In this document: positions 31,810 to 33,241 of the stretch, piece by piece
How positions within the stretch are numbered: the first letter of the stretch is position 1
Layout: every line of letters starts with the position of its first letter
Source of the DNA: a virus
Lineage: Duplodnaviria > Heunggongvirae > Uroviricota > Caudoviricetes
Length of the DNA stretch: 41,822 nt
Reading direction: 5' to 3' (one strand)
Virus record (IMG/VR): IMGVR_UViG_2897346870_000006
The notes under the pieces: generated by a model
What the model was told of the DNA's origin: nothing
The model's input: the letters and a program-made list of their open reading frames with translations, nothing else
The model's database searches: none
Translations under genes and position numbers: made by a program

Positions 31810-32303
31810 TAAGCCCCCACGTAATTCCCTGACAGATACCACTCTTCAACCGATACAGCGCGCTTGCTGCTTTTCCGTAAACACCGCTCACGACGCGCAA
31901 GAAAATTGTTTCGCTCTTGCTGGGAGTGGCTTTCACGGAATGCCGCCATCCACACCGTTGCAGCACGACGGTATAAGCCCCTGGACTCCAGTTCTTCCGC
32001 CTGGCGGGTCAGGCACAAAATCACCCGGGGATCGTTAGTGCCGACATAGAAATTGCGCACAGGTCTGGATTCACGAACTGGTTGCGGTTCCGGCTCCTGC
32101 GGTATCTCAGTCAGCCGCGGGAAATGTCTGCGTGTATCCCCTTCACAACGGTGAGCCACACGCCCACTCTGACGTAACTTGCTTGCTGACTGCAGAACGC
32201 GCTGTCGTGAGTAACCTGCAAAAGCATCCGCAATGTCTCCGGAAGTACACCCCGGATGGGCTTCAATGAATTTCTGAACGTCATTCAAAAGACTCATGAT
32301 CAC
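31809..32303 (-). CDS. YfdN-like protein with PerC-like C-terminal motif
   Basis: 164 aa; C-terminal AEELESRGLYRRAATVWMAAF...ERNNFLARRERC resembles the PerC/Pch regulator family motif (recalled); start overlaps the replication gene stop. Confidence 0.45.
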   Translation of the reverse strand: MIMSLLNDVQKFIEAHPGCTSGDIADAFAGYSRQRVLQSASKLRQSGRVAHRCEGDTRRHFPRLTEIPQEPEPQPVRESRPVRNFYVGTNDPRVILCLTRQAEELESRGLYRRAATVWMAAFRESHSQQERNNFLARRERCLRKSSKRAVSVEEWYLSGNYVGA

Positions 32304-33241
32304 CCCCTGAATCCTGCCGGGATCTGGCTGTAGTCCACGTTGTCGTAACTGGCTTTGAAGTACGGGTCTTCGCGTTTTTCGGTGTACGTGCTGACGGACG
32401 GCGATAAGCGCAGGGAAAGCTCATCCCATTTTTCCCGCAGCTTCGACGGGCTGAGCACGTTACGGCACCAGAACGGATCGCGACTGACGCGGCTGTACAT
32501 CTCGCAGATTTGTTTATGAGTACGACCATCCTGCACACACATCAGGCGAATTTCGTTTGCCCAGGCTGTCCAGTTCGGTTCTTTGGGACGAACCACCTCG
32601 CCGTCACATTCGGCGGCATGCTCGTACAGGGCGATGATTTTTTTCCAGAGCCACTGTGCGCAGGTCAAATCATCCTGCGTCCCCCACTGGCGCTTTTTAG
32701 GGCTGAATACAACCGCATCAGGATGGCGAGTTAAAAAATCCTGTTCAGCCGTCTGCGTGTCCGGTTGCGAAGCGTCCGGACGAGAAGTTTTTTTATCTGA
32801 CGGATCATGTTTTGATTTTACTGACGGATCCCCACCAGATTCTGACGGGTGAAAACCCGCTTTTTTGCCAGATTTCGACGCATCAAATTTTGACGGGTCA
32901 GATTTTGATGCGTCAGATTTTGACGGGTCAGAATCTGACAGTTGAGAAAATGCCGCTGCCTGAAGCTTCGCAACGTTAAGCTGATAAACATTCGACGCAT
33001 TGCGGTTACCCTGGCGACGCGCCCTACGCGTTAACCAGCCTTCTGCTTCCAGCCGTGCGATAGCCGTTCTGACGGTACTCATCCCCGCGCCAATCTGGCG
33101 GGCAATGGTTTCAATTGATGGCCAGCACACACCTTCGTCATTACTGAAATCAGCCAGGCGGGCCATAATTGCCACGCTGGATAATTTCATGCCTGATGCA
33201 GCACAACCATCCCATACATAGCCGGTTAATTTAGTGCTCAT
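32300..33241 (-). CDS. Replication initiator (lambda O-like), iterons embedded in the linker
   Basis: 313 aa; N-terminal HTH-like domain (SSVAIMARLADFSNDEGVCWPSIETIARQIGAGMSTVRTAIARLEAEGWL), a repeat-encoded linker (SDSDPSKSDASKSDPSKFDASKS) and a distinct C-terminal domain. Confidence 0.75.
   Translation of the reverse strand: MSTKLTGYVWDGCAASGMKLSSVAIMARLADFSNDEGVCWPSIETIARQIGAGMSTVRTAIARLEAEGWLTRRARRQGNRNASNVYQLNVAKLQAAAFSQLSDSDPSKSDASKSDPSKFDASKSGKKAGFHPSESGGDPSVKSKHDPSDKKTSRPDASQPDTQTAEQDFLTRHPDAVVFSPKKRQWGTQDDLTCAQWLWKKIIALYEHAAECDGEVVRPKEPNWTAWANEIRLMCVQDGRTHKQICEMYSRVSRDPFWCRNVLSPSKLREKWDELSLRLSPSVSTYTEKREDPYFKASYDNVDYSQIPAGFRG
32798..32945. repeat. Iteron array, putative replication origin
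   Basis: Five tandem 15-bp units at 32871-32945 (consensus GATTTTGACGGGTCA, internal dyad TGAC..GTCA) plus three degenerate TGACGG copies at 32798-32848, all inside the initiator gene as for ori-lambda in O. Confidence 0.7.

Follow-up and report, generated by a model that had tools for sequence, protein, structure and literature searches.

How does a lambdoid prophage that encodes an O-like replication initiator, and no helicase or helicase loader, bring a helicase to its origin? The question is raised by IMG/VR record IMGVR_UViG_2897346870_000006, a stretch of 41,822 nucleotides from a virus of the Caudoviricetes (the whole stretch is called the window below), in which the initiator gene contains an array of 15-bp repeats and is followed by yfdN. 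Helicase loading by O-only modules of this kind is an acknowledged gap. We have found that the initiator ends in a short peptide shared with the host primosomal protein DnaT and propose, with confidence that is about even, that a lambda-style origin is coupled through this DnaT-type tail to the host DnaC–DnaB. The positions of the features are listed in Table 1.

The initiator matches the PHROG family phrog_391, replication initiation O-like, over its full length (E = 5e-135), and its AlphaFold2 model consists of two folded parts joined by a disordered linker (residues 102–159, predicted local distance difference test score, pLDDT, below 50). Foldseek relates the model of the N-terminal domain to winged helices of MarR/ArsR type. 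Phage_rep_O (PF04492) is absent from the initiator, for which Pfam gives HTH_36 only, whereas lambda O matches PF04492 at E = 6e-36. The C-terminal domain, modelled alone, has a pLDDT above 90 for ~118 residues. BLASTP aligns it with the half of lambda O that interacts with P (E = 3e-26), the homology including a block of about 50% identity (WGTxxDL...WANxIRLM..DGR.H..C..F....D.FW..NVLSP.KLR.KW). The first-pass annotation of this DNA had called the domain divergent. This was not borne out, the domain being of lambda O type and present in 369 phage records by tblastn, including lambda, 21, 933W and phi80; an exhaustive phmmer search placed it in 2673 clusters at 50% identity, and a scan with the divergent P0244 domain gave no matches. 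The same C-domain is joined in relatives to either type of N-domain, HTH_36 or Phage_rep_O, and two relatives with 43% identical C-domains, one of each N-domain type, are each directly followed by a Phage_lambda_P gene.

Two features set the initiator apart from lambda O and its P-coupled relatives, a 10-residue insertion in the C-domain, which lengthens the motif spacing across it from 27 to 37, and the DnaT-type tail; the first-pass annotation had noted neither of them. Lambda O has no insertion and ends in ...TNTDWIYGVDL. The end of the initiator, ...VDYSQIPAGFRG, is identical at 8 of 9 residues to the end of E. coli DnaT, ...SEPDSQIPPGFRG. Across the family the tail follows the motif RD[VI]Nx[IV]SxPDxx[IV]PxGFRG, and in DnaT the residues P169, D170, P174, G176, F177 and G179 are invariant from E. 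coli to Buchnera. The form PDxxIPxGFRG found in DnaT appears in the window as the variant DYSQIPAGFRG. Other phage O-like tails are closer to the host protein, as in RDVNAISEPDNTIPEGFRG compared with RDVNTVSEPDSQIPPGFRG of DnaT, where 15 of 19 positions agree. The tail is best described as a shared terminal peptide, not a shared domain, because the cores are unrelated (the hhalign probability for the C-domain against DnaT is 2.7%). The same value led us to reject the C-terminal domain of DnaT as a homologue of the C-domain core, and the three-helix domain by which DnaT binds single-stranded DNA (PF17948) was not found in the initiator. The tail probably explains why databases label these phage genes 'primosomal protein (I)'.

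The genes that follow tailed and tail-less initiators differ. We collected 170 loci with the C-domain, called and clustered the three downstream genes and named the clusters by Pfam. Tailed initiators in this sample are followed by YfdN or Dam, and none of them by P, DnaB or DnaC; tail-less initiators are followed by P (41 loci), DnaB-primase fusions (24) or DnaC/DnaI-like genes (3). When the proteins are grouped at 60% identity, none of the 5 tailed lineages has such a partner, against 11 of the 16 tail-less lineages, which have a P, DnaB-primase or DnaC/DnaI-like gene. Each partner type in the sample has its own tail motif, and it is suggested by these comparisons that the extreme C-terminus of O-like proteins in general specifies the partner. 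Among loci L002–L006 and L102–L170, the P-coupled proteins end in motifs such as TDWIYGVDL, NSPEAWKDFI or SSDWSSPEKMAGAF, and those coupled to DnaB-primase end in DKDDWGYM or DDGIEYF.

The window type (80 loci) has no loader. Further tailed lineages were chosen without regard to gene context, and all of them proved loader-less: P0247, P0249/P0272, P0235, P0275 and P0202, together with P0415, which comes from a Salmonella prophage and has both a true DnaT domain and the tail, and the initiators of SfV (orf39) and of a Stx2c phage, which have a different C-terminal core and an identical 24-residue tail. P0230 combines the C-domain of the window type and its insertion with a tail very like that of DnaT; the gene that follows 2 nucleotides on (4972/4975) is 49% identical to DnaC of E. 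coli. YdaU of the K-12 Rac prophage, with a DUF1376 core, ends in ...QVNTVSLPDSAIPPGFRG and lies directly upstream of the DnaC homologue YdaV. All 79 YdaV-type genes in IMG/VR are preceded by a gene that ends in the tail, on at least three different initiator cores, and the host dnaT-dnaC operon has the same layout, a tailed protein upstream of a DnaC-type gene. Overall, tailed initiators have five or more unrelated cores. From P0230, YdaU–YdaV, dnaT-dnaC and the loader-less lineages it therefore appears that the tail goes either with a DnaC-type loader in cis or with no loader; no tailed initiator next to P or DnaB was found in the sample. The Stx2c phage sharing the tail was considered as a counterexample and rejected, as it is SfV-like and loader-less, and the Eru1–3 replication types of Stx phages were rejected as a match, all of them encoding helicases. 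A second loader-less type occurs in IMG/VR contigs L087–L094, L095 and L101, with O-like proteins of 340–375 residues that have the same C-domain and an extra C-terminal extension of ~90 residues, without a Pfam match, ending in ...SIWKQAIEMLQETQ; these are followed by antirepressor, Dam or DUF968 genes.

Within the initiator gene, Tandem Repeats Finder reports an array at 32869–32932 with a period of 15 bp and 4.3 copies (also period 30, 2.1 copies) and the plus-strand consensus CAGATTTTGACGGGT. The units are partly palindromic, with internal dyad symmetry (GTCAGATTTTGAC), and five TGACGGRT cores are found at 32798–32928. With up to three mismatches allowed, six copies cluster at 32836–32937, against an expectation of 1.2 for all 41.8 kb; none of 100 shuffles reached the total of 7 copies counted in the window. 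The 15-bp iteron array that the first-pass annotation had placed in the linker-coding region is confirmed by these searches and by the AlphaFold2 model, since it encodes residues 100–136, inside the disordered linker. The earlier count of five tandem units plus degenerate copies was close: there are four good tandem units, a degenerate fifth, one spaced copy and two half-sites. As in lambda, where the iterons are annotated at gene nucleotides 349–433, the repeats occupy a corresponding position within the gene and are followed by an AT-rich stretch; the AT-rich element of the lambda origin likewise adjoins its iterons. The iterons of lambda are spaced 18-bp units and those of the window abutting 15-bp units.

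Tandem repeats with periods of 12–24 bp were found within gene nucleotides 286–549 in 10 of 11 O-like genes, lambda's own iterons not being recovered by Tandem Repeats Finder. Their sequences differ with the type of N-domain, and in the protein alignment the repeat peptides (DPSKSDASKS, DPSNIDPSTV, SERxE or SELGGSN) track the N-domain. The C-domain is exchanged independently; it is found with a quite different N-domain and repeats in the L076 type, and the same N-domain and repeats are joined to a different C-domain in L095. Because repeats occur in 10 of the 11 genes, their peptides track the N-domain, and N- and C-modules are swapped, we favour a role of the repeats at the DNA level over a mere peptide repeat. 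This initiator family shows the classical modularity of lambda, in which origin specificity resides in the N-terminal half and partner specificity in the C-terminal half. No DnaA box (TTATCCACA, at most one mismatch) lies inside 32300–33241, the nearest being at 33598 and 33851, and loading assisted by a DnaA box was rejected for want of one within the gene. The results support the view that 32300–33241 is a one-gene replication module with a putative intragenic iteron origin, to which its own product would bind.

Every open reading frame (ORF) of the early region was searched with Pfam, PHROGs and NCBIfam, and ten late-region ORFs with Pfam; for the head genes and several of the tail genes we relied on RefSeq annotation. 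Between the tail genes and the integrase, none of the tested ORFs showed a P, DnaB, DnaC/IstB or primase-helicase domain, and none matched Phage_lambda_P (PF06992). On these searches of the early-region ORFs and the ten late-region ORFs, a hidden loader gene was also rejected. The earlier statement that the module lacks a helicase or loader of its own is borne out, and since the tested ORFs have no such domain, the finding that had been named as contrary to it, a loader domain in an adjacent small ORF or clear P-like homology in the initiator C-terminus, was not made in the profile searches. The identification of the next gene as YfdN/PerC-like also holds, by Pfam and RefSeq. YfdN is present in 80 of 80 close relatives of the initiator locus and is a linked neighbour, probably with a regulatory function.

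Starting from a winged-helix N-domain, intragenic iterons with an AT-rich patch, an O-type C-domain, a DnaT/YdaU-type tail and the lack of a phage loader, all of which can be read from the sequence, a mechanism may be suggested. The winged helix would oligomerise on the 15-bp iterons within its own gene, and the adjacent AT-rich patch, the likely opening site, would be opened as by lambda O. The tail would then recruit the host DnaB6–DnaC6, most simply through DnaC, and host DnaB would be loaded without any phage loader. The module would be of an 'initiator + DnaC' kind, having given up its dnaC copy. Here we infer iteron binding, origin function and, above all, the contact of the tail with DnaC (or DnaB–DnaC). 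The earlier suggestion, recruitment of host helicase 'directly or via a different route', is plausible, and the tail would narrow it to coupling with DnaC–DnaB. In a more general form, to which we give somewhat less than even weight, the ~20-residue tail would be a portable docking peptide for DnaC-type loaders (or DnaB–DnaC), common to host DnaT, Rac YdaU and several unrelated phage initiator cores. The viable phages SfV, SfII and SfIV carry loader-less tailed modules of this kind. In K-12, overexpression of the yfd cluster of CPS-53 inhibits initiation at oriC, and YfdR binds DnaA and lowers DnaB–DnaC binding there (PMC4776307); the presence of yfdR in this type of prophage fits the proposed mechanism.

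Several observations weigh against coupling through the tail. The tail of the window is a diverged variant, with DYSQ where DnaT has EPDSQ. The DNA encoding it abuts the next gene, so that co-occurrence with ydaV or yfdN in close relatives may be plain linkage; the independent tailed lineages are few (~10); and three DnaC/DnaI-coupled O-like genes, from distant hosts, have no tail. The 2026 cryo-electron microscopy structures of the preprimosome were built from DnaT 84–153, and their authors propose the DnaT N-domain, not the tail, as the recruiter of DnaB/DnaC (PMC13377028). How DnaT hands DnaB–DnaC to restart forks was called still unknown in 2026.

Other routes to the helicase have to be considered. 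We consider it unlikely that the insertion-bearing C-domain of lambda O type makes direct contact with host DnaB, the tail being irrelevant or only stabilising. The plasmid initiators pSC101 RepA, R6K pi and RK2 TrfA, which bind DnaB directly, are a precedent. The insertion is present in most of the tailed lineages that have this C-domain, and the domain is weakly similar in fold to SPP1 G39P and to DnaD-like domains. However, P0249/P0272, SfV orf39, YdaU and P0415 lack the C-domain or the insertion and are nevertheless tailed and either loader-less or DnaC-coupled, and the same C-domain without the tail is P-coupled. Just as unlikely, we think, is that the tail mimics DnaT in the restart pathway by binding PriA, PriB or PriC, with the opened origin being passed to the host PriA primosome, which loads DnaB. 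DnaT does act inside the PriA/PriB/DnaT preprimosome, the statement 'DnaT is a PriC-binding protein' occurs in the restart literature, and the Chi-rich region of the window, without a Rec module, fits a reliance on host recombination and restart functions (PMC12315714). Yet DnaT docks on PriA by its three-helix C-terminal domain and on PriB by an acidic linker, both absent here, and in the phage modules YdaU–YdaV and P0230 the tail travels with DnaC-type genes without PriA or PriB analogues.

A loader or adaptor might also go unrecognised in YfdN, or in the DUF1627 or MarR-like winged-helix proteins of other lineages. YfdN overlaps the initiator stop codon and accompanies the initiator in all 80 close relatives, and small winged-helix genes come after the tailed initiators of P0247, P0235, P0272 and P0249. 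As YfdN matches PerC transcriptional activators, small winged-helix genes of a similar kind come after P as well in P-coupled modules (cluster c7), DUF1627 (YdaW) comes after the DnaC-like gene in L183 and in Rac, and P0275, P0202 and P0415 have other neighbours, a function of YfdN as a loader is quite improbable. Still less probable are two further explanations. The module may be unable to act alone, being cryptic or served by P or DnaC-like proteins of co-resident prophages; several lambdoid prophages often occur in one E. coli strain and the C-domain is of the P-binding type, but the gene is intact and, with 5414 member sequences in its cluster at 98% identity, highly conserved, and near-identical modules occur in the isolated and propagated phages SfII, SfIV, PhiR29 and Kati. 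Alternatively, the repeats could be a low-complexity peptide linker only, with the origin elsewhere, and the 15-bp unit does form five codons in frame, encoding DPSKS/DASKS. It would then be hard to see why the units are partly palindromic as DNA, why the repeat sequence varies with the type of N-domain and not with the C-domain, and why its position and the neighbouring AT-rich patch match the lambda origin. We are left with coupling of the tail to DnaC–DnaB as the preferred route.

Much of the module is already on record. It is 97–100% identical to genes of phages SfII, SfIV, PhiR29 and Kati, and the queried stretch is matched in 3422 of 5426 complete E. coli genomes (~63%), 1496 of which (~28%) cover at least 80% of it. 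Zheng, Casjens et al. (2025) count 34 O-only phages among 314 lambdoid phages, none of them studied, and call their replication "not yet understood" (PMC12315714). Since such genes, their wide spread in E. coli and the O-only class have all been recorded, the module as first described, and the O-only architecture with it, is already known; the O-only phages (LLS; including SfII, SfIV and PhiR29) show no architectural difference from the window. The available text makes no mention of a DnaT-type tail. In the literature searched we found no link of the tail to DnaT, YdaU and DnaC-type loaders, which is not proof of novelty. Neither the term 'initiator-solo' nor IPPGFRG, IPAGFRG or a 'GFRG motif' turned up there; PGFRG occurred only in unrelated papers on collagen or peptides.

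Compared with known systems, the module departs from lambda in having no P gene after the initiator. Host DnaT–DnaC, Rac YdaU–YdaV and P0230 with its DnaC-like gene share ...PDxxIPxGFRG at the very end of the protein and have the DnaC-type gene immediately downstream, whereas no IstB/DnaC gene was found among the tested ORFs of the window; the cores of DnaT (a three-helix domain binding single-stranded DNA) and YdaU (DUF1376) are both unlike that of the window. The initiators of SfV and the Stx2c-converting phage agree in the HTH_36 N-domain, linker repeats, tail, adjoining yfdN and absence of a loader, and differ in an unrelated C-terminal core domain and in the repeats. Iteron plasmids with pSC101 RepA, R6K pi or RK2 TrfA work alike, with one winged-helix initiator, iterons and host DnaB/DnaC. 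Unlike these, the window gene has no DnaA box and no Rep_3-type Pfam match, and combines a single winged helix with an O-type C-domain. DopC of the DopC–DopE pair is also an HTH_36 O-like protein with a DnaT-derived C-terminal sequence, but has a DnaT_C domain, lacks iterons, lies on the chromosome and has a P-like gene as its partner (Brezellec et al. 2017). It has been argued that dnaT-dnaC descend from phage genes, and this argument, with the example of DopC, fits the proposed mechanism.

The module is ordinary and widespread, occurring in E. coli and in serotype-converting phages of Shigella, with the SfV-type variant in Stx2c phages. If the tail is the coupling element, the loader-less class gains a concrete mechanism that can be tested by point mutation, and DnaT residues 154–179, the unresolved part of that protein, would be the missing link to DnaB–DnaC in replication restart. 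It would also support the descent of dnaT-dnaC from a phage initiator–loader pair, and such prophages would be predicted to depend on, and compete for, host DnaC. Were the peptide a docking peptide in general, it would account both for the loading of host helicase by loader-less lambdoid phages, those of SfV type and the Stx2c phages among them, and for the transfer of DnaB–DnaC from DnaT to restart forks.

Table 1 Features of the initiator module and its surroundings in the window (positions in nucleotides of the window; aa, amino acid residues)
Feature	Position	Strand	Details and basis
Initiator gene, O-like	32300..33241	-	ATG start, 313 aa; RefSeq 'helix-turn-helix domain-containing protein'
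N-terminal winged-helix domain, aa 1-98, presumed iteron binder	32948..33241	-	Pfam HTH_36 E 4e-11; AlphaFold2 winged-helix fold
C-terminal helical domain, aa 162-278	32408..32758	-	homologous to lambda O C-terminal domain; AlphaFold2
10-residue insertion HAAECDGEVV, aa 208-217	32591..32620	-	absent from lambda O and P-coupled relatives (alignments)
DnaT-type C-terminal tail VDYSQIPAGFRG, aa 302-313	32303..32338	-	disordered in models
Tandem 15-bp iterons, four good units and degenerate fifth	32869..32943		Tandem Repeats Finder, mismatch search
Separate iteron copy, 1 mismatch, beyond 18-bp spacer	32836..32850		mismatch search
Two iteron half-sites, TGACGGAT at 32798 and 32822	32798..32829		core search
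AT-rich patch, 40 bp, GC 0.30; candidate unwinding element	32780..32819		directly downstream of iterons in coding direction
YfdN, winged helix and PerC-like domain	31809..32303	-	Pfam PerC E 1e-9; RefSeq yfdN; start overlaps initiator stop
DUF4222 ORF	33231..33410	-	Pfam E 9e-19, PHROG 1343; stop overlaps initiator start
YmfM-like ORF	33251-33589	-	112 aa; PHROG 1170, full length, E 1e-69
Early-right operon		-	Cro/YdaS-like 34166-34429; CII/YmfL-like 33586-34248; YmfM/DUF4222 33231-33589; initiator 32300-33241; YfdN 31809-32303
YfdR-like HD-domain protein	39211..39774	+	early-left operon; context only

The window holds a lambdoid prophage, with tail-fibre genes at one end and the integrase at the other. 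Its late genes are lambda-like (J, tape measure and Lom; terminase, portal and capsid, the latter three by RefSeq annotation) and include a lysis cassette and a porin gene. Beyond YfdN the minus-strand early-right operon continues with a LexA-N-domain protein, RusA, KilA-N, DUF968/HNH and Q; on the plus strand are CI, a ParA-like gene, yfdP-Q-R-S-T and int. The yfdQ-yfdR-yfdS-yfdT-like cluster occupies 38286–40432 (plus strand). Upstream of the initiator, 33231–33589 (minus strand) holds two overlapping ORFs in different frames, the DUF4222 ORF and the 112-residue YmfM-like ORF; RefSeq annotates DUF4222 only and some phage records YmfM. A DUF4222 ORF is also found upstream of the related initiator in L182.

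Six Chi sites (GCTGGTGG) lie in 29640–39940, against 1.6 expected, five of them on the minus strand and clustered in the early-right/nin region, and no Rec module was seen in this region. The class described for phage LLS is likewise Chi-rich and Rec-less (PMC12315714). The 119-residue protein at 31483–31842 (minus strand) has a LexA DNA-binding domain (Pfam E = 4e-19) and nothing else, the S24 peptidase domain being absent, and is kept in most relatives; from this composition it could be an uncleavable LexA-like regulator. A ParA-family ATPase gene (35411–36487, plus strand) directly follows cI in the immunity region of this integrating prophage. The OmpC/NmpC-type porin gene (27611–28693) and the Lom/Ail outer-membrane protein gene (4105–4704) are typical lysogenic-conversion cargo. 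In L001 (NZ_AP022222), whose module is 99.8% identical, the major capsid gene is interrupted at 5593–7236 by an element that encodes an integrase and a primase and carries TIR-domain and Icd-like genes; unlike this counterpart, the capsid ORF of the window (16564–17589) is uninterrupted.

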